A stretch of 57,115 nucleotides of DNA, filler included, from Dugesia japonica (lineage: Eukaryota), in assembly GCA_001938525.1 (NCBI GenBank). It is 6 parts of 6 records of this genome, joined end to end, with 100 filler letters (N's around TTAATTAATTAA, not from the genome) between each part and the next. Parts side by side here need not be neighbours in the genome. Positions count along the whole stretch, not along the records: positions 47,781 to 57,115 come from MQRL01488630.1; 5 more parts are not named here. One strand, given 5' to 3'. Below the pieces are notes generated by a model that was not told the origin of the DNA, searched no databases, and saw nothing but the letters and a program-made list of their open reading frames with translations. Below, piece by piece: positions 7,224 to 57,115 of this stretch. The translations under genes and the position numbers were made by a program. Numbering within the stretch: the stretch's first letter is position 1; each line of letters opens with the position of its first letter.

Positions 7224-7442
7224 GACAATTGCAATTATTGCGAGAATAATTGTTGGTCGTAACCATTGATCGTTTTTCAGAAATGATTAAAATAAAAGCT
7301 TCGATCAAAAATTGTTTTTTTTTTTGGTTTTTTGATAATAATTCTATATTTCAACTTTGTCTTCGTCAGGAATTTAAAAGTCGAAATATAGAATTATTAT
7401 TAAAATACCAAAAAAACAAATTTTTATCGAAGCTTTTATTTC
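7224..7442 (-). mobile_element. Palindromic Penelope-like/retrozyme-like element, copy 1
   Basis: 11-bp TSD AATTTTCGTAA (7213-7223 and 7443-7453). Inverted arms. Homologous to copies at 27.8-28.0, 30.8, 31.9 and 32.8 kb. Contains a hammerhead motif. Confidence 0.75.
7340..7374 (-). ncRNA. Minimal type I hammerhead ribozyme
   Basis: Minus strand AATTC-CTGACGA-A-GAC-AAA-GTT-GAAA-T-ATA-GAATT: stem I, conserved core, stem II with a G-U pair, palindromic AUAU stem III, AUA triplet. Confidence 0.75.
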
Positions 7443-7825
7443 AATTTTCGTAAAAGTCAATATTAAAATAAAGGTAATTTGAGAAGCATAGAAAATTTTT
7501 TTTTATTGATTGTTACAATTTATTAATTTTCTTCAAAAAATGTTTTTCCTTAAATAAGTCTGTTAAGAATATAATAAAAAACATTTAAATAAAAATGATA
7601 AAATAAATAAAATCAATTTTTTAATTTTACCAATAATTATCGGAAATAAAACTGTATTAAAAAGTGTAAAAATGAAATTTGTATTTGATTATTTTAAAAT
7701 TTAAATATTTGCCTATCAAAAATTTGTTTAAATTTTAAATTTATAAAAAGATTTAAAAAAGATTTAAATTAAAATTCTTTAAGTGTTAATTGTTTTCATT
7801 AAATTAGTAAATATAGAAATAAATT

Positions 7826-26800: not shown

Positions 26801-27850
26801 TTTTATTGGTTTCAGCTCTAATGATTGTTTCGTAAAAAATAACGAGATTTTCTGGTTTTAAATTTATTTCTGGTTTGAAGCTCTGATTTATTTAAATTTA
26901 AATTGAATACTGATGAGTAAAATAAACTCATAAGTCTGCTCATAATAAATTTGAAATATTATTGAAATTAAATTATCTTCGAAATTATTTTTTTAAAATT
27001 TACGTTAGAATCTTGAGAATTTTTTCAAGTTAAATTTTGACTACGTTAAATAATGAATATATTTTAAGAACATAGTATTTTAAAAGTTATTTTTAGATTG
27101 TTGCATATAATTCATCTTTTCAATTCTGTATTATTTTAATAGTGTAATTGTCATTCATATAAAGGACAATTATTGATTTCTCTTTAAAACAAGAAGTAAT
27201 CAGTTGAACATTACATACAGATGATAATTTATTAAAACTTTTAAGATAAATGTAGATAATTTTGCACACATGTTATGAATGAATTAATAGTATTCAATAC
27301 GCTATTATTTTTATGTAATCTGATTTTTAAAAAAAATTTTTTTTAGATACGGGNACAATAAGTATAAACAAAAGGCATACTGTTACAGCAATTTGGATCA
27401 TCTGGATGTGATATTTAGTGCAGAATTATTGATAAATATTCGTGATAATTCTCAAACAAATGAAAACTTTGATTGCTTGTTATATTTACGCCGTGATTAA
27501 ATATCAAAAACATTTCATAAAGAAATTTCATCATTTGTAACCATCGAAAATAAGAAGCATTAAATAGAAAAATAAAAGCTAAAGGAAATAGAATTTTTGT
27601 CTTATTATATAAAAGTAGATTATTTTCCATTTGATAAGGATATTTTTATTAAGGGTTGTCAAAACTTATAACGAAATCCAAATTATTTTTTTAAATTAGA
27701 TGAACTTAGAACAGAATTTGATGTAAAATAATTTGAAACGTAATAGTACATACATAAAATAATTAGAGTAGAACATAATTGGAGTTAAAATAAATTAAAA
27801 TTCATTTAAATTAAAAGCTTCGATCAAAATTTTTATTGGTTTTTTGATAA

Positions 27851-27887
27851 TAATTCTAATTTTCGACTTTGTCTTCGTCAGGAATTG
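27851..27887 (-). ncRNA. Minimal type I hammerhead ribozyme
   Basis: Minus strand CAATTC-CTGACGA-A-GAC-AAA-GTC-GAAA-A-TTA-GAATTA. Confidence 0.75.
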
Positions 27888-27900
27888 ACTTTTCAAAAGT

Positions 27901-27937
27901 TAATTCCTGACGAAGACAAAGTCGAAAATTAGAATTA
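27901..27937 (+). ncRNA. Minimal type I hammerhead ribozyme
   Basis: TAATTC-CTGACGA-A-GAC-AAA-GTC-GAAA-A-TTA-GAATTA: 6-bp stem I, intact core, 3-bp stem II, palindromic AAUU stem III. Confidence 0.8.
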
Positions 27938-28149
27938 TTATCAAAAACCAGAAAAACAAATTTTTATCAAAGCTTTTATTTAAAATTAATTCTGAAAAAC
28001 GATCAATGGTTACGTCCAACAATGATTCTCGCAATAATTGCAATTGTAAAATAAAAAGTAAAAAGACTCGACATTAATATTAAAGATTTATTTAAGAATA
28101 ATATATTTTGTATTATTTAAACAAAATTGACTGTTTAAATAATCACTAT

Positions 28150-30761: not shown

Positions 30762-30933
30762 AAATTGCAATTATTGCGAGAATAATTGCTGAACATAACC
30801 CATTGATCGTTTTAAAGAATTCATTTAAAAAAAAAGTTTCGATCAAAATTTTTTTTTTGGTTTTTAAAAATAATTTTAAAAAAAGTCAATTCCTGACGAA
30901 GACAAAGTCGAAATTTAGAATTATTTTCAAAAA
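30762..30933. mobile_element. Palindromic element, copy 3, with one hammerhead (30888-30922, +)
   Basis: Starts AATTGCAATTATTGCGAGAATAATTG; contains AATTC-CTGACGA-AGACAAAGTC-GAAA-T-TTA-GAATT; cut by a gap. Confidence 0.75.
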
Positions 30934-31963: not shown

Positions 31964-32791
31964 TAATAACTATTCATTTAATAATATTTATTAAAATATT
32001 CTAATAAATTCTAAAATGATTTTTTTTCTATATAAATATTTGAAAGTTTTATTGCCAAATTTTAGAAATTAGATATGTACATAAAAATAGCGTGAGGTTG
32101 CTTGAAAATATTCTTTGAGATATATTTCTTTAATCAGAGAAAGCAAAATACGAATTTTTTAAATATTCAGCTAATTAATCAAATTTTAAATAAATTGTAA
32201 ACTTTTCCAATCAATAAAAACAAATAAAATTAATTATTTACAATGCAGTAAAAAATATAAATAAAAAAAGAAAAATTATCTATTAAAACAAGAATATATT
32301 AAGGAATTGGTTATAAAATTGAAATTTTCCAAAATTAGACACCTCTATAAAAGTAGCATATCCAAAGGACGAGTAATAATTCCATTGAAATATTTTGTGA
32401 CACCATATTATAAACTAGATAATTTTTGTATAATATCGCAATAATAATAAGTTATAATTAACCTATAAACTAAACATTTACTTAATAATAGACCAATACT
32501 TTGATTTTTAGCATCATGGTAAAAGTTTGATATACTAGGAATACCGCTAACCAAAAAAATTTGGTAACCACTGCACTAATGGTAGATGAAACAATTCTAC
32601 GTGAAAATATAATTGATGAATATATGACTAATTTTAAACAATTAGAATATACATAATTTATTTGTTTAACTAAAAATATATAAATAAATGTTTTTAATAT
32701 TTACTTAAAGTTATTTTTAAATGAAATGAAATTATTCAAACCATAAATTTTATTATTGTTATTTATTTATTACTTATTATTAGTATTTATA

Positions 32792-32906
32792 ATTATTTTA
32801 TCAAAATATAAAAAACAACATTTTGATCGAAGCTTTTAATTTAATCAAATCTCAGATACGATCAGTGGTTAAGTCCAACAATTATTCTCGCAATAATTGT
32901 TATTGT
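32792..32906 (+). repeat. Arm of the palindromic element family (copy 5), no ribozyme core
   Basis: TTTTGATCGAAGCTTTTA…ACGATCAGTGGTTAAGTCCAACAATTATTCTCGCAATAATTG. Confidence 0.7.
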
Positions 32907-35900
32907 ATAAAAATTGAGTTTTATAGTAAATGATGCCCACTGAATTATATTTGAANNNNNNNNNNNNNNNNAAAGAAAATTTAATAAAATTAATTAGACA
33001 TAGTTTATTTGGTATTCTGAAAAATCAACAGAAGAAATACACAAAACAAGTGATATCTTTTTCGTCAATTCAATATGACATTAAAATCGAAATAAATCAT
33101 TTTAATAAATCATTTGCAGTCAAAGAAAAATCTATTAATTCAAAAGATTACATTTCAAACTAGAAATTAGAAAATCAACTACAAAAGAAACTACAAAAAT
33201 GCCAGAAATTAACATTGAAAGAATTAATGTATTCTGTTGAATTCTGTCACTAATAAAATGCAAACTCAAAAAAAGAAATATCACCACTCATATAAATAAC
33301 ATAACATTTCAAGTTCAATTAGTTAATATATTAACAAAAATTTCCATAACAAAAAACCAAATTGACAAAAAACTGTTTCCATCAAGTAGAGATTGAAGTT
33401 AAAAGTACGTGATATTTTCCGTTTATGATTACACTGGTAGCAGTGATGATTCATTGATTTATCGTACTAGGTCAACTGAATTTATACATATTTCGATTTT
33501 TTAGAAATTTCTGATTTACTGAGATAAATTTGTGAATTGATAACTTTCTAATCTGACACATTAGATGCATTATCACTGACCAATTCAAATTGATTTCGAA
33601 TGTTAAATTAATTTTTAATCATAGATAACTGATAGTTGCAACAGGAAAAATAGAAAATATTTATTTTAATATCATAAAATCATGAGACGCTTCGAATTCC
33701 AGAGATGGAAAATAAATGATTTTCTGTCAAAATATATTTTCTTTTTTAATAATGCTAATTATTTTGAAATTTTTGTTTAAATTAATATTAATTGCTTAAT
33801 AATGTTAAGAATATTAAAATATATTGACAAAACTTACGTAAACAAAATTATTTACCAATAAATATCCGTAAAATTATAAATAAATTTCTGATTCTTAAAT
33901 TTGTGAGAAATAATATTAATAATTGCAACTTTTTCAAATTAAAAAAAAGGATCTTATAATGTATAATGAATACTGTAATATTATTTTTAATGTATGGAAC
34001 AACGACACCAATCAAAATGGTGTTGTAAAAAAATCGATTGAAGAAGACTTTGTACTGATTACTTATTCTCAAATTGATATTTATTTCAAATACAAGAATA
34101 GAAAACTTCATAAAACCATATTTGCTATGTCAACAATCAAATAAGAGTTGACAAAAATATTTTTCTATAATTATTTCTCAGTTTTTTCTTACATGNNNNN
34201 NNNNNNNNNNNNNNNNNNNNNNNNNNNNNNNNNNNNNNNNNNNNNNNNNNNNNNNNNNNNNNNNNNNNNNNNNNNNNNNNNNNNNNNNNNNNNNNNNNNN
34301 NNNNNNNNNNNNNNNNNNNNNNNNNNNNNNNNNNNNNNNNNNNNNNNNNNNNNNNNNNNNNNNNNNNNNNNNNNNNNNNNNNNNNNNNNNNNNNNNNNNN
34401 NNNNNNNNNNNNNNNNNNNNNNNNNNNNNNNNNNNNNNNNNNNNNNNNNNNTTATTATAATTATGAGCAGTTAATTAGAAATGTCATAATAAAATACACA
34501 AGGAATACAAAATAAATAAATCAACAACTTCATCATGCATCACAATTAACTACACAAATTAAATTATGAGATGAAAGAATTTTTCTACGAATAACCTTGT
34601 CGTAAGATATTTTATTTATGTCAATGCATTAAAAGCTGTATATAAAACACATTATCAACAAGTGTACCAAATATTTTCCCTGTATGATTTGTGTCATAAT
34701 TATAGATTTAATTTCGCTACATTAATCAAAGTAACATTGAATTAGATAAATTACAATCGAAATGGCATTTTAATGTTTTTAATATACAGTTAATGAGGAA
34801 GTTTCATGTTTATTTTAATCAATCCAGTTTTTGATAATAAAATTCATAAAATTCCAATGACATTCCATTAGTTAAATAAAAATTCCACAAAATTAAATAA
34901 ATAAAAACAATAAAAACAACACCGAAATATTAATAATTAAAAAAAATTATCATAATAAATCAATAAAATCTCACCTAATAAGGACATTCCTGGAATTAGA
35001 AAAAAAACAAAGTTAATAATTCTATTAGTAGAAGATTGTTACAAGTATAAATATATAAAATGAATCAATGTGAAACAATGAACTTTATGGTAATGATTTG
35101 TTTGTATTTGTACTGCTCAATAATTAGTCAATAATGAATACAGACGTATCGTTTATAAGTAATTTTAAGTGCTACAATAAGTTACAACAAATTAACAAAT
35201 AAATAACAGTTACTTTTCTACTTATATGACGTCAAATAAATATTGGATATAAAAATTTTCATAATGGAATTTATTTTTTTTAAAATTTCAATTAAATCAT
35301 GCAGTCCATATTCAATTTTTTTGTTGAAATCATTCTGATTTNAGTAAAGTTTCTTTATAAGAAAATTACATGGGAATGAAAGGAAAAATGGATTTGAAAA
35401 AACCAAAGTAAAATTAACAAGAAAATTTTTAAATCATTTAATTCAGTCATATTCAAACGTTTTGGCAACTAAAAGCTATTAAAAACATGCAGAAATACGT
35501 TATGGTTGCAGGCCGCACAATTTTATAAACTTTAAACAAGATTTAAACATGCAGAATTTCTAAATATTAGATTGATCAAAAAGTTCGCTCGGTTTTGAGA
35601 TTAAAATTTAAAACTTATTTTTCTGAAGTGATTATTAACAATCAATTATTTTTTTCTTTATTTCATAATTTTATTTAAACAAGTAATAGCTGATTTTAAT
35701 ATTTAGTAAATAAACAGCTACAAAACTTTCGAAGATAAGGAGCATATTTACCATATTATTCTTTTTTACTTTTGTAAAACGAAAAAATGCAGAATGCAGA
35801 AAAATATTGACAATAGTAAACATTAATGAGCGCATTTCTGCTTGTAATTTGCTCATGAATGTACGGAACGAGGAAGATCCATTTTAANNNNNNNNNNNNN

Positions 35901-41940: not shown

Positions 41941-43727
41941 CATTGGGTTGGTGCATAATGTTTTGCCGAATTTTAAAGAAAAATTACAATCATAATTTTT
42001 ATTTTATATTCAAACAATTATTAATTATATGTTCACAATTGTTTTTAATAATCATTTGCCATCTCTGAGGTAGTTTCAAAAATCCATAATCGTAGAATTT
42101 TTTGGATATGAATAAGAAAAACTAAGGAATTGTTGTTTTACAAGCTTCAAAAGACTCCAGCTGTTTTTCATTAAGATAGCTCTGCATCGATCGAAACAAA
42201 TGATAATCGAAAGGTGCTATATCTAGAAAATATGGAAGGTTTATAAGCAAATCCAATCCGAAGTCATTCAATTATGAAGAGCCCGAAAAGACTTATGTGG
42301 TACTTATGAACTATCATCTTATTTCTATTGTTTAAACCTGAACGTTTTTCTTCAAGAATTACTTTTAGAACATCTAATTGTGCACAGTAGNNNNNNNNNN
42401 NNNNNNNNNNNNNNNNNNNNNNNNNNNNNNNNNNNNNNNNNNNNNNNNNNNNNNNNNAAACACAACATTATCTACTTTTGGTCTAATTCTGCTTTTGGAG
42501 ATGTTACTGATGTTTCAACTTCTTTTCTCCAATGCCGTTTTTGTTGTACATTATTATACATAGTCCATTTTCATGTACTTTTTTAATTCGTTTCAAAACG
42601 GACTCATTTTTGCTGCAATTCAAAAAGAAATGCAAGCAAAAAAAAAANTGCNNNCAATTACCGTATATACTCGCATATAAACCGATCCCACAAATTTGGT
42701 TAAAAACATGTCCAAAATAGATGACCCGCGTATAAGCCGACCTATCTTTTTTAAGTTCGGAAAATTTGGCCACTCCAGTAATGCAAGCGTTTTTTGCTCT
42801 AGGCATTTCTTCTAAATAATTTTTACTTTTCTTCCATTCCATTAATTGCTTTTCATTGTCATCAAATTCACGAACTGCTGCGCAATTGTTGTTAGCTATT
42901 GCAAAATTAACAACTTTTGGTTTAAAAGCAACATCATATGATGACTGCTTCTGTTTAATGGCACCAAAAAGCATTNNNNNNNNNNNNNNNNNNNNNNNNN
43001 NNNNNNNNNNNNNNNNNNNNNNNNNNNNNNNNNNNNNNNNNNNNNNNATATTAATTTACAAAATATCAATTAGTAAATGACACATTACATTTATTATCAA
43101 TTAATTATTGAATCATAGTTATTTTAATTAAAAGTAGGTTCGCATATAAACCGACCCATCAACTTTGAAAAAAAAATTATTGAAAAGTTCTCGGCCTATA
43201 CGCGAGTATATACAGTATGTTTTTTTATTGATAATCTTTCTAACTGTGGTATGGTCTAGACATAAGATAACTCAAATTTCCAATATGATAAGATAAATAG
43301 TGTTTATTTATCAATCAGTGCCTTAATTTTGTCATTATGAACCCTAGATGACATCCAAAAGAAATTCGTTTTAAGAGGCTAATATCTCCATCAAGAAATT
43401 TTGTAAACCATATTCGAATATTCCGTTCTTTAACTGCATCCTTTCTGCGAAGATAGCGTATTTATCTAATCGTTTACGCAGAATTGTTTCCTCTTTTAAA
43501 GCAATGAAGCATAATAGATCGAAAAATCAAATCTTAATCCACCATTTCTAAAATTCATAAAAATTGTAACTTAAAACAAATTTAATATTTTATTAAAGTA
43601 ATATTAATTTTGGATGTATTTTCTATTAGTTTAAATATAGATTTTTGTTGCATGATAAATTACATTCTTTTCATAGTCATGAAATATAATGCTAAAAACC
43701 GACAAAACATTATGCACCAACCCAATA
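41941..43727 (-). mobile_element. Mariner element with both TIRs, decayed, interrupted by a pogo-like element
   Basis: TIRs ATTGGGTTGGTGCATAATGTTTTGCCGA / CCGACAAAACATTATGCACCAACCCAAT; transposase remnants KWTMYNNVQQKRHW and PYFLDIAPFDYHLFRSMQSYL. Confidence 0.9.
42661..43215 (-). mobile_element. Internally deleted pogo/Tc2-like element retaining a Brinker-type DNA-binding domain
   Basis: TIRs CCGTATATACTCGCATATAAACCGA / TCGGCCTATACGCGAGTATATACAG with TA TSD. ORF SYDVAFKPKVVNFAIANNNCAAVREFDDNEKQLMEWKK resembles the POGK-like BrkDBD. Confidence 0.85.
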
Positions 43728-44640: not shown

Positions 44641-44652
44641 TTTAATAAATAC

Positions 44653-45078
44653 TTTCAAAGACGTATGACATAACCATATGAAGCGCATTTCTCAATTGAA
44701 CTTTACGAACATACATGGCCTCTGTTTGTCTGTTTGTGACATAATATTGCCAGAGCTTACTGGAAACAATATCATGATAACTATTAGCATTGAGTGTTAA
44801 ATTATCGTGATGGAAAACGTTACATTTTGAGTTTGGATTGGTCAATACAGATGAATGATTTCCACCTAAAGTAGCAGCTATATATGCGGCAGCAATCATG
44901 TTGTTTCCAGGATTTGATAATAACGGACAGTTCATAGCAAAGTTTTGCGGAATTTGAGAAGAAAAGGCGGACATGTTTGGAAGAGGTATACTTGATAACA
45001 CACCATTGTTAGTAAAATGAGAATTATTTGGTGAAAAAGAAGTAGACATCGGTTGCTGGTGATGAGAATTAAAATTTC
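44653..45078 (-). CDS. GLD2: Exon of a probable GLD-2/TENT2 cytoplasmic poly(A) polymerase (start of the catalytic region)
   Basis: AG acceptor at 45080-45079, GT donor at 44652-44651. Ends HDIVSSKLWQYYVTNRQTEAMYVRKVQLRNALHMVMSYVFE, the helices that precede the GSS motif in GLD-2. The GSS/DxD exons are not seen. Confidence 0.7.
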
Positions 45079-45122
45079 CTATTAAATATTTATTTATTCA
45101 AACAAAAACTAAAATATATAAC

Positions 45123-46633
45123 CTTCCGAATTAATAAATGCAATATTTGAGCAAGAAATTGGCTGACAAGAACCAGTGGAACCAGATAAATGATTAATTT
45201 CAGAATTTCCTAATTCAGAATGCGAAATAGTTTGACTGACGTTCTTATTGATCAACTTTTTCTTTTTGTTACTATCGCAATCCGTATTATCTATAGTTAC
45301 TGTATTTTTTTCTTCAGATTCAACGACTAGTTTCTCCTTAAAATCCACAGGCTTATTACAGGGTTGAGAAAATTTACTTTCATTGATTAATGACAAATCG
45401 CGATCATTATTTCCCAGTTGGCATTTGGTAATTTCAATAGTATCCTCATTACAATACACAAATTCCTCTTCCTCGACATTCACTATAAATTTTGCAGAAT
45501 CCTTTTTCTGATTTTCAAAAGAATCAATAACAATTTTCTTAAAATTTTGATTTTTCTTTGACTTAGAAATCTCAGAAACACTGCTATTACATTCCGAAAT
45601 TGTCGGTTGATAATTGTTTATTTCCGTAACAGAATGATTTGAATTCAATTTCACACAGCTGTCAGTTCTTTCTATATTCTCTCCGCCATTTGACAATAAA
45701 AGACAATCTTTGGATTTATTGTGAACAGCCGAATCATGATTCTGCAAAATAGCATTCGACGGTTTTGATACTATTCCATTGAATTGAATATAGTTTGAGT
45801 GAACACCTTCATTGTCTAATTTTATATTTTCCATTCCTTTAACATGATGACTTTTACTTGCAGTTTTTGAATTATATTGCAAATCTGATCCTGATAAAGA
45901 CACAGCATTCGCCTCATTATTCGAAGATTTCTTCCATTCGTTATATTTAGAGTTTGAATTGAAGTTGTTATTATTTGGTGATTTAGAGTCTTTATTTTGA
46001 TAGAATGATTGATTTGACGATAACGAACCTGCTGAATTGTCATGAAACAGATGGAAATCATTGTTTACTGATTTATTATTAGCAATAGAGCCAGGAAATG
46101 TTAATAACGGTCCATTTGAATTCAATCCTGATTGATATCTTCGAGAATGATTTGTTTCAGAATTGAAATTGGTATTTGCTCGCGACGAACGATTTGAGTG
46201 CATTGACCGAGAATAATTTGATGAATTCTGATAATGATGATTATTTTGACCTGCAATAAATCGATTATTAGATCCAGAACCAGAATAGGAAGTGTTCATT
46301 GGAAAAATTGAAGAATATTGCTGTGAACTGAAATTTTGATGATTCCCATGATAGTGAGATGAGAATGCATTGCCACTGATAATTGGTGACTGAGAAGAAT
46401 TAGAATGTGTTTGATTATTACTAAGCTGATTAGGAATGAAATGATGTGGAGAATTTAATAAATTTGTTATATGGTTATTAATATTGGATCCATTCAAGAA
46501 TGTATTATTACAATTAGCACTCGAATTATTGCCGGGAGAGCAAAATAAATTATTGACTATATTTGGTGACATAAACCACGAATTTTGATGAGTGTGATGG
46601 TGCTGCTGTTGTGAAAATGCATTGTGATAAGAT
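45123..46633 (-). CDS. GLD2: Large Asn/Ser/His-rich exon of the same gene
   Basis: Open 1.5-kb frame from an AG acceptor (46635-46634). A 44-nt GT-AG intron (45122-45079) joins it in frame to the next exon (…NSE-G-NFNSHHQQPMSTS). The first exon was not located. Confidence 0.7.
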
Positions 46634-47254
46634 CTAAGTTTGAATAGAAAGTTTAAACATTGTACTATTACACTTTTACGAAATTTTATTGAAAATACAC
46701 TTCAAAATAACTTCGTTAATATGAAAAAAACAATATATTCCGAGAATTTTAATTGATAAGAACGAATTTATGTTATTTAAGATAATAGATTAATCTTAAC
46801 TGATTTAATAATTAGGGCAGAAAAGTGACTTAGAAAGACCTATCTAAACATTAATTTTTGGATCCACGGATCTGATTGGCAACGCCTCATGCAACCTACT
46901 TCCAATAATCGCTTAAGTTTCTGCACAAAAATTTTAAAATATTTATAACTGATCTTCAACTAATGTTATGTTTAGCAATATTACTTTGATTACCAATTCA
47001 ACGATGCTCCTTAATTCTTGAATAGAGATGACAGGAAGTCTCTTGAATGTAGGTAACATCACATCAATTACATTTATATTGATAAACAATATTGAAACAC
47101 AATCTAAATGGTATCTTAGAATTATTACTAGACATTTGTATTATTTTTAAGGTTGTGAAAATATTTTATAATTTCAAGAATTACTTTTATAATTTAACAA
47201 CTCACTTTTAAGTTATTTAAACTTTTAAGAATTGTTCAAAAATGGTTTAAGCTT

Positions 47255-47452: not shown

Positions 47453-48299
47453 ATTTTTAATAAATTGTTTCAAGTATTTTGTCTTATTTGTGTAGGGATA
47501 GGATTTTTTTGTGCGTTTTGTATATATATATATATATATATTTAAATAACCAAAGAACAATGGCAATCTTTTAATAAAAACTTTTAAACGCCATTTCAAT
47601 ATATACTTCTGCACTACATGTTTCGACAGCATAACTGTCATCTTCGGATACAATAATAATTCTTTTTTTGAAAATTCTTTNNNNNNNNNNNNNNNNNNNN
47701 NNNNNNNNNNNNNNNNNNNNNNNNTTAATTAATTAANNNNNNNNNNNNNNNNNNNNNNNNNNNNNNNNNNNNNNNNNNNNTATTTATTTATTCTCTCTCA
47801 TATTTATAGTTTCCTTTTCCTCTATTTAACCATTGCTTCAAATTTCAATTTTTTTTACATTTCCTTTTGAGTTACAGCTATTCTATACTCGTTCTAGCCC
47901 AAAAAATTACTGGGGTCTCCGAAAATAATTCTGACCCGGAATTTCCTCAATAAAATTCCGTACTTCACTCATTTAATCGTCTGAGTCTCCATATCTATCA
48001 AATTTCTTTAAAATTCAACTTTACTGGTGATCATCGGTCCTGAAAGGGCCCTCAAGTAAGTTATCTATAAATATCCAAAACAGAAAAGAGAGAAGATATA
48101 AGCAAATTGTTAGCATACATAAACACACCATACCATGTTAGCATTAAAGACTCATTTAATAAAATAATTGTCAAATCATAGTTCCTACATTCCAAATCAC
48201 TGTTTACTGTTAGATATCATAATATATTCTATTTGATCACAAAGAATTCCTGGATCGAACAAGAGAATTGTTGTCGAAGTATTTCTCTGCCGGGATACT

Positions 48300-49348
48300 C
48301 AAAATTGATAAACTACTCTGCCGGAGTATACATAATTGATAAATCGCGCTGCCGGGATTGTTGATTGGTAAACTGCTCAGCTGGTTTTGGTGCGTGTGAA
48401 TCATTTGATGAACACTCTGTCGGGGTTGGTTGGACTCGTATAATACTGTTTGGTTGGGCTTGATTGTTTGCTTGCAGGTGGTAATATAGGTTATTTACAC
48501 AGGGATGCAGTGTAGAGCTGCCACAAAAATAGTGTCATTCGAGGAGATTTATCGACCGCAGAATAGATTTTCGTCAGATTCTGAAAAAGGCCATCTGTTT
48601 GTAGGTTCGGGGGTTGGAATTTCTGGAATTCAAAGACTCGTGTTTCACCGTTGTTGAGCTCGTTGTGCTAAATAATTAATTTCCATCGCTATGGGTCTCT
48701 CTGATCGAAACTGATTAAGTCGGATTGGTTCGCCGGGCGGCTTCTTGGCGGCAACATTACTGGAATGGGTGTACTTTAGAGTTTTTCGTATTTACTCCTC
48801 AATTTTCCATACTCATTAGTCAGCTCNACATTCTCGATAATTAGGTTCTCATTTTCTTCTTTCATCTCTTGTTTCTTTTGGTTTAATCGTTCATTTTCCT
48901 GAATCAGATATTTGTTGCTATTTTCCAAGTTTTGGTTTATGATCATTATATCCTCGTGTGCTTCTTTCCATCGTTTACTCTCATGCTTCCAGCTTTCTTT
49001 ATCCCTTATCTCTTTTTGAATACGGTTGAAATGAATTTCTTGAGCATGCAGTCGAGAATTGTTATTTTACTCGATGGTTTTCTCTAACATCTTTGCCTTC
49101 TTTCGATTCTAGTTTAGTTCGGATTGTAATTCGTCAATTGTACTGCTCATTCGCTTTCTCTCTAATGACGTCTCTTTTTTAATCTCTTCTCGGTATTGTA
49201 ATTTAAAATATTTAATTCGGCCCTCTGCTTCATTGATTCGGTCCTTCTGACCCTCAATTATTTTTTCCAACGTTCGTTGCCTTTCTTGGGACTTTGTTAA
49301 TCTCTCTTTTAGTCGGTAAATTTGGTTTTCATAGAATTTTGCTGCCAT
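48300..49348 (-). pseudogene. Coiled-coil accessory ORF of the Gypsy element (decayed)
   Basis: MAAKFYENQIYRLKERL… stays in frame through isolated stops for about 190 aa of E/K/Q/N-rich heptads, then turns Pro-rich (STPIPVMLPPRSRP). Confidence 0.6.
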
Positions 49349-49816
49349 TTCCTGATAATTATAATAAGGTTTTCAAATTGATATTTTAGTGCTCGAAAGT
49401 TAATTCACGTATTTTACTTTTATAAGCTGAGCTAGTTTTAGTTTATTTGTTCATTTATTTTGTTTTATTATGCTTATAATTGTTGTGGTCATATATAATT
49501 TAATCAGCCGGGATGCTCTCTTGGTTCTTTTAGATTAACAATCAATTGGGTTTCGCTAGGGTTTATTACTTGGATAATAACATTTGACTTCGACTTTTTC
49601 TTCAGATCTGCATTCAAAATTACTTCTTGTTTACTTCGTGTTACTGCACTCTTCCTCATAACATACTTCAACGTTACTCAAAATTTATTCTACTCGGCTT
49701 CATCAATCGTGTTCGGCTCCTGTGATCCATAATTTTGGTCATACTATTATTATTACTAGATACTCTAATATTACATTTCGAGTGTTTCAAGCTATTTACA
49801 CAATTTTCACTTCTCT

Positions 49817-51790
49817 CTACCACACTTGTTTGCCGGCCCTTTTCCCTGGGTTACTGGTCCTCATCATCGCCTTTGGCGGATGTATATATTTATCGCTTAA
49901 TTCCAACAACTCATGTCGGACCTTTGGTCTCGAATATTGTCCTTTCTTTGCCTTTATACACAAAATTATCGTAATTATTAGTACCATCGTAGCTATTCCA
50001 CTGACTCCGCCAATAAGTCTGATTGGCCATCCTTCATTCGTTTCTGCTAATATAGTTGCTGTCGTCACTTCTTCTAATTGTTTCGCTTCTTCTGGTTTGA
50101 TTTTAAGTTCGTTGAACCTTGCTATCGTTTCAACTATTTGTCGAACATCTCATTTTTCTCTTGACTTAACGTTTTTGGATGAATGTCCGATTCTTCATTT
50201 CGGTTTATAACGGTTTTATGCTGAATTACCGCATTCAATTCCACTTTGTCAGTGGTACTAGTATTGGTACTGCTACTCATATTTCTCGTTGCTAGTGTCT
50301 TGAATGTCCTTACTTTTTTATCTCGTGTCGTCTTTGCTTTGCTTGTTGACTTGATTGTCACTGTTGATTCACTTTTTATTTTTATTGTCANTTCTAACGT
50401 ACTCAATGTTTGCTTTGTCATAATTCNTGACTTTGTAACTCTTTTTGTCGTTCTACCTGGTGGTAACTCCCACACTATCATATATTCCACTTAGAACCAT
50501 ATTCCATATCTCAGTTGTATCTCACGTTTTAATTCTCGTTGATTGTCATCCCATTTATATTTTGATAATAAATCGCCGTTTGCCCAATCTTTGAGTGATG
50601 AATAATGTCCGATTCTCATATTTTCTTTTCCTTCTCGTAACACTGATAAGTCTACAAACTTTCCTGCCCAATTTATTTGAATTCCGAGCGCATTTCCTCT
50701 GCTGTAAGGTATATTGCCTCGTTTTACATCGAATCATCTTCCTCGTTTTGTCCAAAGTACTTCATGCGCCCCTTCTGGTGTAAATCTCCATAAGTGTGAT
50801 ATATATGATAGATGTTTCTTTGCACAATATTTCTCATTTCTACCCCATGTTGGATTATTCTTTCTCGTATTGAGTATAAAATATGGAAATAATTTCTGTA
50901 GTAGATACTAAATATTCTACTGACTTCAAAAATTCCTGAATCTTTGTAGTAACTTGACGTCCACGATTCCTCTTGGTATGGATTTCCATATTCTCCTTCA
51001 TATTGTATTATGCGCATTTCTTGTGGTTTTTCTCCTGTTATCTCAAGATTCACTTGCCAAGATTCTCTAAATATCTTTACAGTCATTGAGTGTCCTTTAG
51101 CGTGTATACCGGGTTGTACCCATGTAAATGGAGGTCCATATTCTATTTCCGTATAATGACCTCCTTTTGTCATGACACGTCTCAATCCTTTTCTCGTTAT
51201 CGTCTGTATCTTTACCTCGAATCTCGTTATATATACTCGATGCTCCATCTAAACATCTTCATAATCATAGCATTCTTCTCCATTGCTTACACGTATCATT
51301 ATCACAATTATTATCATTTATATCCACAGATTTCCTGGTAATAATATTTGACTCTCTCCTCTGGGGTTTTCCATTTCAAATTCTCTTCTTTTATCTGCTT
51401 TTTCTCCTTTGAACGTGATCGTTATCAAAATCAATGACACTGTTATTGACGTTATTATAGTCGCTGATAGTATTAATGTCCAACATTTGTTATTCTCACT
51501 TTTACGTTGATTTGGTATTATTGCCGGACCCGTTGTTCACACACTCTCGCTCCAAATCACCTTTATCATTATTAACGCTATTAATAAATATAACCATTTA
51601 TCCATCATTTGACCGTTTTATTTGATCCACTTGTCGCTGTCATGGTCTCATTAAGTTCATATAATTTCGTTGACCGAATTCCAATTCTTGTGGGCCTCAC
51701 CATTACCACTATCGTTATTATACACATTGTAAATATTATTATTGGTATCGATGCGATACATGTCCACGCAATTTTCTCCCATCGTCTTCC
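49817..51790 (-). pseudogene. Env-position membrane protein region (several TM/signal segments, ectodomain, Thr-rich stalk, TM anchor)
   Basis: Hydrophobic segments near 51780, 51595, 51485 and 51330; ORFs 51248-50724, 50490-50134 (Thr/Ser/Lys-rich) and 50068-49817 (LIGGVSGIATMVLIITIILCIKAKK). Confidence 0.6.
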
Positions 51791-53253
51791 AAGTGACGGG
51801 TTTTTATCTAATATTACTGCCTTCTTTCTGTTCTTGTAGATTGATTCGTTTATAGCTGTTGTTATTTCTTCGTACTGTCATCTTTTATTACTGGTATCTC
51901 TGGTAGAGAGACCTTTTGTCCCCTTTCTTCTTCTTCTGCTTCCATTTTCTCAAGCTCTTTGCATTCTTTTTCCATTTCCTTTTGTTTCCATATTAGATAC
52001 CTTCCATCATGTTGCCATTTTTGTTGAATTTTTATCCATCTCGGTATCATATCTTCTGGATCCTCTTCGCACCCTTTTGTGATGTCCCACATATCATATT
52101 CGAACTCTTTGCACCATCTCGTTAGATACCACTGATCCATAATTTTGTCTGCTTCTTCCATTTCTTTTCTTTTTTAGATTCGACATTTCTCCGTATTTCG
52201 TAATTCTTCATATATTCTCCACCATTAAAGTATTAATGTCCAACATTTGTTATTCTCACTTTTACGTTGATTTGGTATTATTGCCGGACCCNTTGTTCAC
52301 ACACCCTCGCTCCAAATCACCTTTATCATTATTAANGCTTCCGGGTCCTCTTCGCAACTCTTGATAATATCTCTCTCATTTTCCGTATGTTAATCAGTTT
52401 CTCTGTCGCTCCATGTCGTCTCAAACCAATTTGATCTGTCGTTCAATGTTTTAATTACATATTCGTTATCCTTTTGAATCGTTTTGAGCTCGTCTGTCGC
52501 TTTTGGTTTTTTTGTTACAAGTTTTTCGTATTCGTTGTCACTGTCGTCGTCTTTCAATTTAATTTCTGTGCCTGTTTTACACCGATTCTGTACTTGTCGT
52601 CTTTTATTTCTGTTTATTCGACTTTTTCTCTTTCGTCTCTTTGCTCTTTGCTCCTGTCTTGAGTCATTGATACCTTCTTTTTGATCGCTTTCCTCTTTAT
52701 TTTGTTCAATTTCCAATTTCTTTATTAATTCTTGACATTATACTTTCAATGTTTGTAAGAAAAGTAGCGATCAATCTCAATTTTCAACTTCTGTAAACGT
52801 CTCGAATTGTTTCCACATTGTCATAATTTTCTGTCCGTCTTCCTCTGACGTGTTCAGCCTCTTAATTTTTGTGTCTGTATCTTCTATGAAATCCATCACA
52901 TCATCTCCTGCAAACGTGTTCTGCTTTATCTCTTGATTCTGGTTTGTTTTGTTCTCCGCTTTTGGTTGAACCGTCTTTTTCAATGCTGTTCTTTGTCTTT
53001 CTAGTGCGTCGAATGCTTTTTTACCTCATATAATCTCCTTAGCTGCTGTTTCTTTGTTCCATAATTGCTTTTCATTGTTTTTCATATAATTGTCCGTAAT
53101 TATTGACAGCAGATCACCTCTTACTTTTGAAAAGTCAACGTCCTCGTCGATTCGCGACTGCTACTTGATACGATAAGGTTGCTCTTCCATTTTGCGTTGT
53201 ACCTTATGTAGTTCTTTAACTGTTTTCTCCAATTGATGCCTCATTATCTCTGC

Positions 53254-54524
53254 ACAGGTTAAACATAGCTTCTGAAACACTGTTTTTGGTATTGGCAACT
53301 CGATTACTTCATCCTCTGCTTCACATCGGAGACATCCTTGACTACCTTACGCCGGATGGTTTCTTAACCAGCATCTTTTTTGTGCTATCATTATTAAGGA
53401 GTCCTTAACCTTGATCTCCGTCTTTTGGAAACATTTATTACATAAATTCTCTAAGTCTCCCGCAACAATTGGACATTTAGTTGGTTTCTTTAATACACAT
53501 CGATTACACTTCTTGGCTTCTGGTTGCTCTTGATTTACATGTATAATATCCCATATTTTCTCTTCAGCTTCTTTCAATTGTAGTTCCATTATTATTACAC
53601 ATTCCAAGCATACGTCTTTTAACTTGTTTTCGGTTGTTACGATCCCGGTTTCTATTCGATTTTTATTACTATATTTGCATTTGACTTCTCCTTGAATTTG
53701 ATTACTTGTTAATTCTCGTTTCTTTTGTCCCACGTTAATCTATGATAACTGAATCTCTGTACGGAGATTAATTTGACAGCTTCTACATAATACTTCGCTG
53801 CTGTCATGTCGATTGGACATTTTGTAGGTCTGAAGGTTTTACAATTTCCTTCCCAGTTCAATGGTGAATGTACTTCTTCATTTTTGTCGATCTCGAATCG
53901 ATTTGACTTATTAAATGTCCATCTTTCTTGTTGCCTCATTGTAATTCTCTGTGAAATTAGTAGACATGGTTTACACAATGATTTCCAGTTGTTCGCCGCT
54001 CCGTGACTTTTTATTCTGTATCGTCCACATCTTGGATTATCGCATTGTCGATCCTCTTGAATTATTCTTTTTTCCACTGAATGATAATATTGATTACGTA
54101 TATCTCGTCTATTTTCAATTATAGTTAAATTTTTTTTAGTTGATATTTTCTCATAATCTCCTCAGTGGTTAGTTGAATATTTATTCTTATGGGTTTAGCT
54201 GCTGATAAGCCTTTTTAATGATTGTATACACATCTAATTTTGCTACGCATTATTTGTCTCGCATTTGTCATACAATTATTACACCATTGTTTTTTATTTC
54301 TTCTTGGTCACGTTTAATTTTATTACTACTTCCATACACTGTATACAAGCTGCTCTTTCGATGTCGGTTTTCTCTCTCCACATTTGTAATGACATTTGAT
54401 TAATCCCTCTATCTACATGTATGATTTTATTCTGTGTTACTCGTAAGGATTGATAACACATTTTTAACAATTGACTCTTGTTCAAAGGTGCCGTTTCCGG
54501 TCTCGTTTCTTTACATATATTACA
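53254..54524 (-). pseudogene. Tandem C4 zinc-finger-like array (Cx2-4C-x17-19-Cx2C)
   Basis: Examples: CNRC-x18-CNKC, CLRC-x19-CLTC, CDNPRC-x17-CKPC, CNIC-x18-CYQS, CKYS-x19-CLEC. Confidence 0.7.
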
Positions 54525-54604
54525 CTGATTACTTTCTTCGCTTGATTCTGGAGCTCCAAACTTCCTTTTATTGGTTTCGCTGTTAACATCATCACAAGAT
54601 GTCT

Positions 54605-57115
54605 TTATCTGATCGAATATCTATCTTCTTTATCCGGATTATCTAATTTAAATCGAACTCGTTTCATTTTACTCGTTTCTGGTTCTGCTTCGACTAAGTT
54701 TTCCTTGTTTACTAATATCTCCTTGACTGCTACTTTACATCTTGACACATGTACAATACTTGGTTTCTTTAAAGGTTTCCCCAATTCTTTTAATTTCAGA
54801 TTTTTTGCGGTTGTCTCGATTACCATATATGGGCCTTTATTTGCTCGCTTTAATTTATCCGTTTTTCTAATATCGATTGTCTGTGTATTTACTAACACTA
54901 GATCTCCCTTTTTAAATGATTGAGCTTCTGATTTACGATCAAAGAATTCTTTGAAACTTTGTTGACTAAATCTTGCATTTGCTTCAGCCAATTTCCACAT
55001 CTCTCTCATTCGCTCTTTCATGCCTGTCACATACTCATCTTCGTCCATATATTGTGAAATTGGTGGTTGATATTCTAAATCGATAGACATGTTACATTCT
55101 CATCCATACATTAAACTAAACAGTGTTGCTCTTGTCGTTGGATATACTCCCATTCTGTACGCAAATAGACATAAATTTAAATGTTTGTCCCATTCTCTTT
55201 GATCTTTTGATGCATAACTCAATAACATTCTTGTTAAAGTTTGATTGAATCTCTCTGTCATTCCGTTCGTCTACAGGTGATATGCGGATGTCCGTAATTT
55301 GTAGATATTGAAGAAACTCGTAACTTCTTTCATCAACTCGCTCAAAAAATTCTTTCCTTGATCCGTTAAGATTTTCTTTGGAGGACCGTAACGCCTAAAT
55401 ACTTTGGCGATGATTGCTGCTTTTTGGTTTCTCAACGCAAAGGCTTCCGGAAATTTTGATAATTAATCAACCACTGTTAAAATGTATATCATTCCACTGT
55501 CCGTTGGTGGTAATGGCCAGATTATATCCATCGCTATTATATCCATTGGTGCTGCTGGCAATGGAATTGGTTGTAATGAAACTTTGAATTTCTTCCCGGT
55601 TCCTCTCCTTGCTGCGCATATCTAGCATTTTTCTACCCATGCTTTCACGCTTGTCGTTATATGTGACCAAAATTATTTCGCTCTCAATTCTGATTCTGTC
55701 TTTTTAGCTGACATGTGACCTCCTAATATTCCATTATGGTATTGTTCCAAAATCTTTGCTCGTCTATTTTTAGGTATAACCAATAACATTTTGTCGCTCT
55801 CTTTCATCCTTAACCATCCGTTTATTATTGCATATCGTCCTCCTCGTTTCTTTAGATGTTCTTTCATACTTTTTTTACACTCGACTTTACTCAAATCGTA
55901 ATGTTTTAGATAATTTAAAATTATCTTAATCTCTTCATCTTCATCTTTATCCTTTTTCAGACCTTTAAAATCTTTATTCTCTGCTAATATCATGCATAAT
56001 GTCCGTATTTCTTGATTCATTAACTGGTGAATATCGATTACCTCATTATCTTGTATTTTAGTTTCCACTTTGTCTTCCGCTCTTGACATGTAATCTGCAT
56101 TCGCATTCGCTTTGCCAGATTTATACTTTACTAAAGGTGCATATTCTTGAGGTTTCATGACCCATCTTGCCATTCGATTTACCTGTAACGGTTTTTGCCC
56201 GATCATTATAAGTGGTTGGTGATCCGTATAAATCACTAATTCATGTCCGAGTATCAATGGTTTCTTAAAATCCGGTTGCACCAATATCGGTGCTGTCATT
56301 AATTTTTCTCGTATGATCTCGAATGCCTTTTGATGTTCGTCAGTCCATATGAATGTCACATCTTGTCGTACTAATGATTGAATTGGTTTGACTATCACCG
56401 CAAATCCTTTAATAAATTTTCTGTAATAGTTCGCCATACCTAGGAATACTATATCATTTACATTCTTTGGTACTGGTAATTTCTTTATCTTTTCAAGATT
56501 TGCTGGATCTGGTTGCTTTCCGTGATCTTAAATTAAATGACCTAAATATGTCACTTGATTTTTCGCACATTCACATTTTGTCGGTTTTACTCTAAAATTC
56601 TTCATTCTTAATCGTACAAATACATTTCTTAAATCTTTTAAGTGCTCTTCAAATATCGTCGAAAATATTAATAAATCATCGATATATACCATACTCTGTG
56701 GTATTCCATGTGCTACAAAATTCATTGTTCGTTAGAATGATGCTGGTGCATTCGTCAATCCGAATGGCATCCTCATAAATTGATATAAGTCTTTTTCTGC
56801 TGAAAATGCGGTTTTCTCTTTGTCTGCTTCTTCTATTTTGATTTGCCAATAACCACTCCTCAAATTTAATGTTGTGAATACCTTTGCATTATATAATAAC
56901 ACTAACATCTAGTTTATGTCTGGTAATGGATACGTATCCTTTTTGGTTTTAGCATTTAGTCTTCGATAATCAATACAAAATCTCGTTGATCCGTCTTTTT
57001 ATTTTAACTAATACAACTGGAAATCGCCATCGTGAACAACTCAGCTCTAACACTTTATTAAAAAGCATATCATCGATTTTCTCGGCGCAAATCTCATTAT
57101 CCGCCACTGCCTGTT
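54605..57115 (-). mobile_element. pol: Ty3/Gypsy pol (RT-RNase H-integrase), decayed
   Basis: RT: RFCIDYRRLN, SGYWQI, MPFGLTNAPASF, VYIDDLLIFS. RH end: YTDHQPL…NANADYMSR. IN: HHCC, MDII, TDQGKNF, TNGMTERFNQT, KGPY. RT-RH-IN order. Multiple stops and frameshifts. Confidence 0.97.

Follow-up and report, generated by a model that had tools for sequence, protein, structure and literature searches.

The minus strand of positions 49817–51790 carries the decayed C-terminal part of the Pol polyprotein of a Ty3/gypsy element, and sequence comparison supports this module as a conserved, predicted type I membrane protein under purifying selection. The window is the whole stretch of 57,115 nucleotides of Dugesia japonica DNA that was analysed (assembly GCA_001938525.1), of which positions 47,781–57,115 come from MQRL01488630.1. 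Judged from alignments of copies, the core of the ectodomain is exchanged between element lineages. The favoured role, given a probability of about one half, is that of a second surface protein for attachment or tropism, which would be cut from Pol by signal peptidase and act beside a gB-type fusogen. Its standing as a type I membrane protein under selection is far better supported than the roles proposed for it. The element class is known; no account of the exchangeable surface module behind integrase was found in the literature searched.

Organization of the element in the window

The element was mapped to the following features, listed in the order of transcription.

56225..57113, minus strand: reverse transcriptase and RNase H of the decayed Ty3/gypsy element (Pfam RT_RNaseH matches; tblastn map; 80–86% DNA identity to env-bearing sister copies)
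54620..55780, minus strand: integrase, with H2C2, core and SH3-like C-terminus (Pfam PF17921, weak PF24626; tblastn map)
53287..54575, minus strand: Cys-rich extension, in a continuous frame with integrase in sister copies (open stretches; dN/dS 0.21)
51874..52776, minus strand: further part of the extension, with a charged coil-like segment and a Trp-rich domain (no Pfam family over the cut-off)
52229..52339, minus strand: 111-nt duplicate of the H2–TM3 stretch (97% to 51469–51579)
51698..51781, minus strand: TM1, a long hydrophobic segment preceded by basic residues (hydropathy, inspection)
51549..51596, minus strand: H2, a short hydrophobic segment, by eye like H4, which may not span the membrane (hydropathy, inspection)
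51411..51482, minus strand: TM3, followed by basic residues (hydropathy, inspection)
51279..51329, minus strand: H4, a predicted internal signal peptide with a small residue at its end, abutting the ectodomain (hydropathy, inspection)
~50458..51278, minus strand: ectodomain of ~275 aa, predicted to be nearly all beta, with two conserved Cys (alignments, models, dN/dS 0.15)
~50035..50457, minus strand: Thr-rich basic stalk (composition)
~49955..~50032, minus strand: C-terminal membrane anchor with a Gly-rich start (hydropathy, inspection)
49943..49954, minus strand: KAKK stop-transfer (inspection)
49817..49954, minus strand: predicted cytosolic tail, which includes the basic stop-transfer and a conserved Tyr; stop codon at 49817 (open stretches, inspection)
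48550..49348, minus strand: separate downstream ORF of coiled-coil character, common to sister copies and family B (no Pfam family)

All parts of the surface protein that had been described in an earlier note on this DNA (four hydrophobic segments, an ectodomain, a stalk, an anchor with KAKK and a tail) were located here. The window copy is decayed: its reading frame shifts near 51600, 50860 and 50140 and contains five stops, and the 111-nt duplicate is a rearrangement seen in this copy. That the Cys-rich extension continues the frame of integrase is supported by a natural open stretch of 717 aa in copy L073. Among A-type places (classes defined below) 3 of 5 are stop-free across the junction of the two, and among D-type places 13 of 20; the junction between the coil and the Trp-rich domain is stop-free in no more than 5 of 13. 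At 49808–49820 (minus strand), a purine-rich run with TG behind it overlaps the stop codon of the tail and resembles a polypurine tract. No LTR pair was found in the compared stretches of this fragmented assembly.

Copies, families and continuity of the frame

A DNA search of the same genome recovered at least 49 matches (40 of 250 candidates scored). With the natural stop-free ectodomain of copy L025 as query (P0002), at least 140 matching places were found (138 of 811 candidates scored), and the module is not the captured host gene, unique to this locus, that the earlier note had kept in view. The P0002 matches fall into classes near 90%, 50% and 33% identity, termed A, A2 and B. Queries from B and from two alleles of a distant family, D, gave at least 141–144 matches each, from 740–950 candidates; a further ectodomain allele is termed C. 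Family D retains the module at about 17–20% identity with the two cysteines kept, and its ectodomain is homologous to that of A (hhalign probability 91%, E 1e-6). Candidate copies of the element number in the hundreds, every copy examined is broken or partial at some point, and the matches inspected in context all sit in element copies. Downstream of the surface protein, family D also carries ORFs with BIR and RING (IAP-like) domains (L106:39-668, L107:1971-2450). The BIR matches PF00653 at E 2e-12, and no BIR was seen in the family of the window, the 3' end of which is partly mapped.

Continuity was read from natural open stretches at 181 distinct places, with no sequence mended. All eight junctions from the Trp-rich domain to the tail lie within a natural stop-free stretch in most of the places touching each, including those between H4 and the ectodomain (42 of 56 places), stalk and anchor (17 of 20) and anchor and tail (17 of 21). 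Individual open stretches extend from RNase H to H4 (1187 aa, L108), from the extension to the tail (691 aa, L110) and from TM3 to the tail (567 aa, L055). Because such stretches run from the integrase-side extension to the tail, the surface module is read as the C-terminus of Pol and not as a separate ORF.

Several copies (L128:144-2878, L125, L127 and L131) have lost reverse transcriptase, RNase H, integrase and TM1–TM3 and keep the protease, coil, signal, ectodomain and anchor; they may represent a non-autonomous element whose sole contribution is the surface protein. H4 is the only hydrophobic segment before the ectodomain that is retained in deletion derivatives. In those without reverse transcriptase and integrase the coil is fused directly to H4, in frame at 4 places, which suggests that H4 alone can translocate the ectodomain.

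In three RNA runs the window stretch matched 0, 8 and 1 reads, none of them 95% alike and with no host control. A distant copy matched 7, 44, 0 and 1 reads in four runs, with no joints and again no host control. A sequencing run of unstated kind yielded 386 matching contigs.

Anatomy and predicted topology of the surface protein

The ectodomain had been described as aromatic-rich and poor in cysteine, and this is borne out by the A-type stretches, where F+W+Y make up 15% and two Cys are present. The stalk is mucin-like in its Thr content (14–20%) but not otherwise, as Pro accounts for 1–3% and Lys+Arg for 19–24%. N-glycosylation sequons are rare, with none in the A-type ectodomain and one in the D type. 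A furin-type site (R-x-K/R-R) is absent from the A-type stretches scanned.

Topology and predicted signal cleavage derive from hydropathy and inspection; a hydropathy scan over 19 residues at a time did not pick up H2. There are 5–8 Lys/Arg behind the anchor and 5–7 basic residues ahead of TM1. With basic residues at these two segments, the likely arrangement has the tail and the Pol side in the cytosol and the ectodomain in the lumen. The chain, with its four hydrophobic segments, would then have to cross the membrane an odd number of times, as it would if H2 stayed short of spanning it, or if TM1 formed a hairpin and H2 served as a second signal. Hydropathy, charge bias and the Cys pair are all consistent with a type I protein.

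A PPxY motif, familiar from viral budding, occurs in the tails of family D at 33 places. Together with the several membrane segments, this motif would suit a scaffold for assembly or budding, in which TM1–TM3 and the tail bend the membrane or recruit ESCRT while the ectodomain chaperones or shields the gB-type env. However, the tails of A and B are without PPxY, TM1–TM3 are deleted in the amplified derivatives, and an exchangeable core is unexpected in a partner that has to fit a conserved env. A scaffold of this kind is improbable.

Selection

The earlier note had proposed a dN/dS comparison among copies, and this comparison points to purifying selection. The ectodomain region of the window has a dN/dS of 0.15 against L025 (95% bootstrap 0.10–0.22; 329 codons), beside 0.11 for reverse transcriptase and 0.16 for the integrase C-terminus of the same copy and 1.52 for an off-frame control. 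Six other A-type stretches give 0.18–0.35, B pairs 0.21–0.26, A2 pairs 0.28–0.50 and pairs within the D types 0.15–0.39; values between A and B (0.42–0.61) are near saturation and unreliable. The matches, the stop-free junctions and the selection agree with the type I membrane protein from a polyprotein that the earlier note had inferred, and they show in addition that the module is conserved and forms the polyprotein's end. The findings that would have spoken against that note, a lack of a conserved ORF or of purifying selection across copies or a captured host gene confined to this locus, are contradicted by these data.

It could be argued that the module is a captured host exon or an inert passenger amplified with the element, given that all copies examined are broken or partial and that no homologue was found outside this genome. 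This is largely refuted by the selection data, since the dN/dS of the module is near that of reverse transcriptase and integrase in the window copy. The module is moreover retained across families at 17–20% identity, and the matches seen in context are element copies, leaving a passenger a very slight chance.

Exchange of the ectodomain core between lineages

The A2 copies resemble A closely in the region from TM3 through the signal and the first ectodomain residues (89–93% identity, dS 0.14–0.34), with the exception of one copy at 75% and dS 0.55, whereas in the core the identity is 38–63% and dS 0.6–2.4. At the DNA level, the identity of A2 to A is 77–92% upstream, drops to 49–69% within the core and is back at about 80% by the anchor. 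In the tree test, on 23 rows (21 distinct) that have both core and flank, the cores of the four A2 copies group as a single clade (100/100), whereas their flanks fall in at least two A lineages, and a single clade of the four A2 copies is rejected for the flank tree (AU p=0.0004). The A2 cores split into pairs that broadly track the flank groups, a pattern that argues against random assembly chimeras without excluding them. C cores in B flanks dip in the same way, L129 showing 83–92% at the anchor against 45–52% in the core. Because both dN and dS rise in the core, recombination of old alleles is indicated rather than a burst of positive selection. Family D is near saturation (dS 1.3 in integrase, 2.0 in the ectodomain), and exchange is hence seen for A/A2 and B/C only.

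Such allele exchange fits a conflict with the host equally well if the protein acts on the producer cell, as a receptor block against superinfection, as an adhesion molecule for direct cell-to-cell transfer or as an immune decoy. An accessory of this type would be in keeping with the 4 places at which derivatives without reverse transcriptase and integrase keep the module in frame, and with the many host-modulating domains that these elements carry (BIR/RING in family D; described in part for related elements in PMC6431247). Against it, the module shares its translation with Pol and is linked to env, and the family D tails have PPxY at 33 places; a role confined to the producer cell is less likely than the favoured one.

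A separate gB-type env upstream of the protease

In sister copies a Monjiviricetes/gB-type fusion glycoprotein (PF24664) lies upstream of the protease (E 7e-35 in L073, 4e-80 in L088), in frame with it in stretches of 780 aa (L083) and 1752 aa (L088). The sister copies thereby show the GAG-ENV-POL arrangement, with a gB-type env upstream of PR-RT-RH-IN. The env layout is known from these sisters, and the env of the window copy itself would lie beyond the window; because the window ends inside the reverse transcriptase, this env had escaped the earlier reader. Env and ectodomain occur on one contig and strand in C345810 and in C186332, the latter chosen for its presence in both match lists (env, ectodomain). 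Of the family-D contigs selected by env, 8 were of sufficient length for this comparison, and 6 of them also carry the two together; the module is deleted in one of the others and interrupted in the second. No single frame from the protease through reverse transcriptase was observed among the open stretches.

Between env and reverse transcriptase, two aspartic protease domains flank a zinc-knuckle cluster (L083:1498-3837; L085:3393-4205). Further upstream, before the env signal peptide, L082:4702-8446 contains Gag-like sequence with a CCHC knuckle, together with stretches that by eye resemble ubiquitin and BCL2. Pfam gave no match over the cut-off for BCL2-like, ubiquitin-like or MATH domains in the upstream stretches scanned.

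Because sister copies carry a separate gB-type env upstream, the surface module is probably not the fusogen of the element. The surface protein does not match PF24664 itself (L025, L110, L108, L054), and Pfam gave no family at E≤0.5 for L025 and none at E≤0.05 for L110, L108 and L054. The absence of an F-type Env pattern, reported earlier, stands: no Pfam family, no furin-type site in A types and models without long helices.

Fold and homologue searches

AlphaFold2 models were obtained for one ectodomain from each of two families (pLDDT 64.6 and 70.1, moderate); both are nearly all antiparallel beta and compact, with at most one 5-residue helix. Residues ~6–140 of both align weakly to sandwiches of TRAF/MATH, Avr2/ToxA-like and WSSV VP37 type (Z 4.0–6.1, where the threshold of the tool is Z 8; rmsd 3.1–4.4, about 95–110 residues, identity 4–11%). 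The MATH structures score Z 4.4–5.5 with no Pfam match, and on these models the resemblance to TRAF/MATH or ToxA-like proteins may be only a common arrangement. In VIA both models score highest against a designed Ig dimer (Z 6.3 and 8.3), and the ectodomain is assigned to no fold family. Foldseek against the PDB gave none at E≤0.001, and BFVD gave TM values under 0.3, with weak rows for WSSV Wsv338 and Wsv464. The structural comparison that the earlier note had called for therefore delivered two all-beta models but no clear fold match. No known viral fusogen was among the fold-search matches of these moderate models, in which the C-terminal half is barely covered.

The module had earlier been put forward as an env-like protein, potentially a new attachment or fusion protein. 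Its classical env position behind integrase would favour a novel class of fusogen that duplicates the gB-type env, and no fold match names another identity. The protein is, however, small and compact and has two Cys; A types lack a furin site, the models show no more than one short helix, no Pfam family matches, and the element family already has a fusogen. A role as the element's env or as a new fusion protein is not supported here and is very improbable.

No near-length homologue of P0002 was found among 68 candidates, and none among longer proteins with either alignment A1 (2558 candidates) or alignment A2 (1596 candidates). Searches of P0002 against 1.84 billion representatives and against viral and metagenome contigs returned no homologue, nor did two queries of low recognition against the ESM Atlas. 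PDB sequences gave 0 matches with one query and a best E of 0.07 with another. This absence of homologues outside the genome is weak evidence, as eukaryotic repeat proteins are perhaps poorly represented in the collections. The ectodomains constitute an orphan beta-domain family with several natural alleles and are well suited to structure determination.

Proposed role

Under the favoured reading, that of a second surface protein beside the gB-type fusogen, TM1 to H4 would thread the chain through the ER membrane and signal peptidase would cleave after H4. The ectodomain, its two cysteines joined by a disulphide, would then project from the stalk on the lumenal side. Sorting to the budding site would fall to the tail, which in the distant family D has PPxY, and the alternative cores would represent receptor-binding or immune-evasion alleles. 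On the particle, the surface protein would attach to cells and the gB-type env would fuse. Both the release by signal peptidase and the role in attachment are plausible inferences. The attachment reading is weakened because the A-type ectodomain has no sequon and the models give no functional match.

Herpesviruses (gB with gD/gH-gL) and paramyxoviruses (F with H/HN/G) combine a conserved fusogen with a separate, more variable, stalked surface protein. By analogy, the element might, tentatively, encode a two-component entry machine, in which a conserved gB-type fusogen is paired with a receptor-binding spike of so far unknown fold from the end of Pol, swapped as serotype-like cassettes that set cell or host tropism. 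The analogy is functional only, with no sequence or fold relationship found, and differs in that both components here come from one retrotransposon polyprotein region.

The glycoprotein of Atlas virus is reportedly placed behind pol and is said to be a Cys-rich, class II Gn-Gc protein. In contrast, the surface protein described here has two Cys and sits in a Ty3/gypsy element; Atlas virus, of the Belpaoviridae, is described as an invertebrate LTR element with a phlebovirus-like envelope glycoprotein (PMC9094657).

[quoted passage not shown] A selected, exchangeable second surface protein is a concrete candidate for the step by which elements with gB-type fusogens would find their target cells. 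If the proposal is true, the elements would resemble true enveloped viruses in an arms race with the host.

Relation to known elements

The giant gypsy-like elements Burro and GYPSM1 of planarians have a GAG-ENV-POL layout with Env in frame upstream of the protease, and BIR is a listed Burro feature (PMC6431247). Burro1 RNA rises in animals with PIWI knockdown (PMC8532177). The likeness to the present element comprises the single large polyprotein with this position of Env, the upstream CCHC knuckle, and the BIR and coiled-coil ORFs, here in the distant family D. The section on Burro and GYPSM1 in PMC6431247, figure aside, differs in that it mentions no membrane protein behind integrase. Burro elements are also marked by a length of over 30 kb with long LTRs and by BCL2-like, ubiquitin-like and MATH domains upstream of env; the stretches compared here, from a fragmented assembly, gave no LTR pair.

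Flatworm Ty3/gypsy errantiviruses with an HSV/gB-type ENV ahead of pol (PMC13524379, excerpts) share that position of env with the present element. The Platyhelminthes elements differ in that the same excerpts describe one ENV per element and no second surface protein, and the words 'attachment' and 'accessory' are absent from the main text. No post-integrase surface protein or allele exchange was described in the literature covered; the original Burro genome paper and the figures may annotate the region.

Other loci

Elsewhere in the window, long Asn/Ser-rich ORFs at 44642–46701 (minus strand) probably belong to a host gene. Pfam gave no match for them, and their end resembles by eye the N-terminus of a non-canonical poly(A) polymerase. 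Positions 42504–43055 (minus strand) resemble by eye the N-terminal DNA-binding part of a pogo-type transposase. Among the top fn3 matches in the genome, 0 of 39 loci lay close to reverse transcriptase, integrase or env, and the ones inspected resembled host genes. A MITE-like short dispersed repeat with long inverted arms occurs at 7225–7447, 27832–28054, 30800–30933 and 32789–32913, and also in L091. Outside the window, ORFs that by eye encode family-B DNA polymerases of the Polinton/adintovirus type adjoin element copies at L097:4766-8974 and L018:578-1441 (both minus strand).
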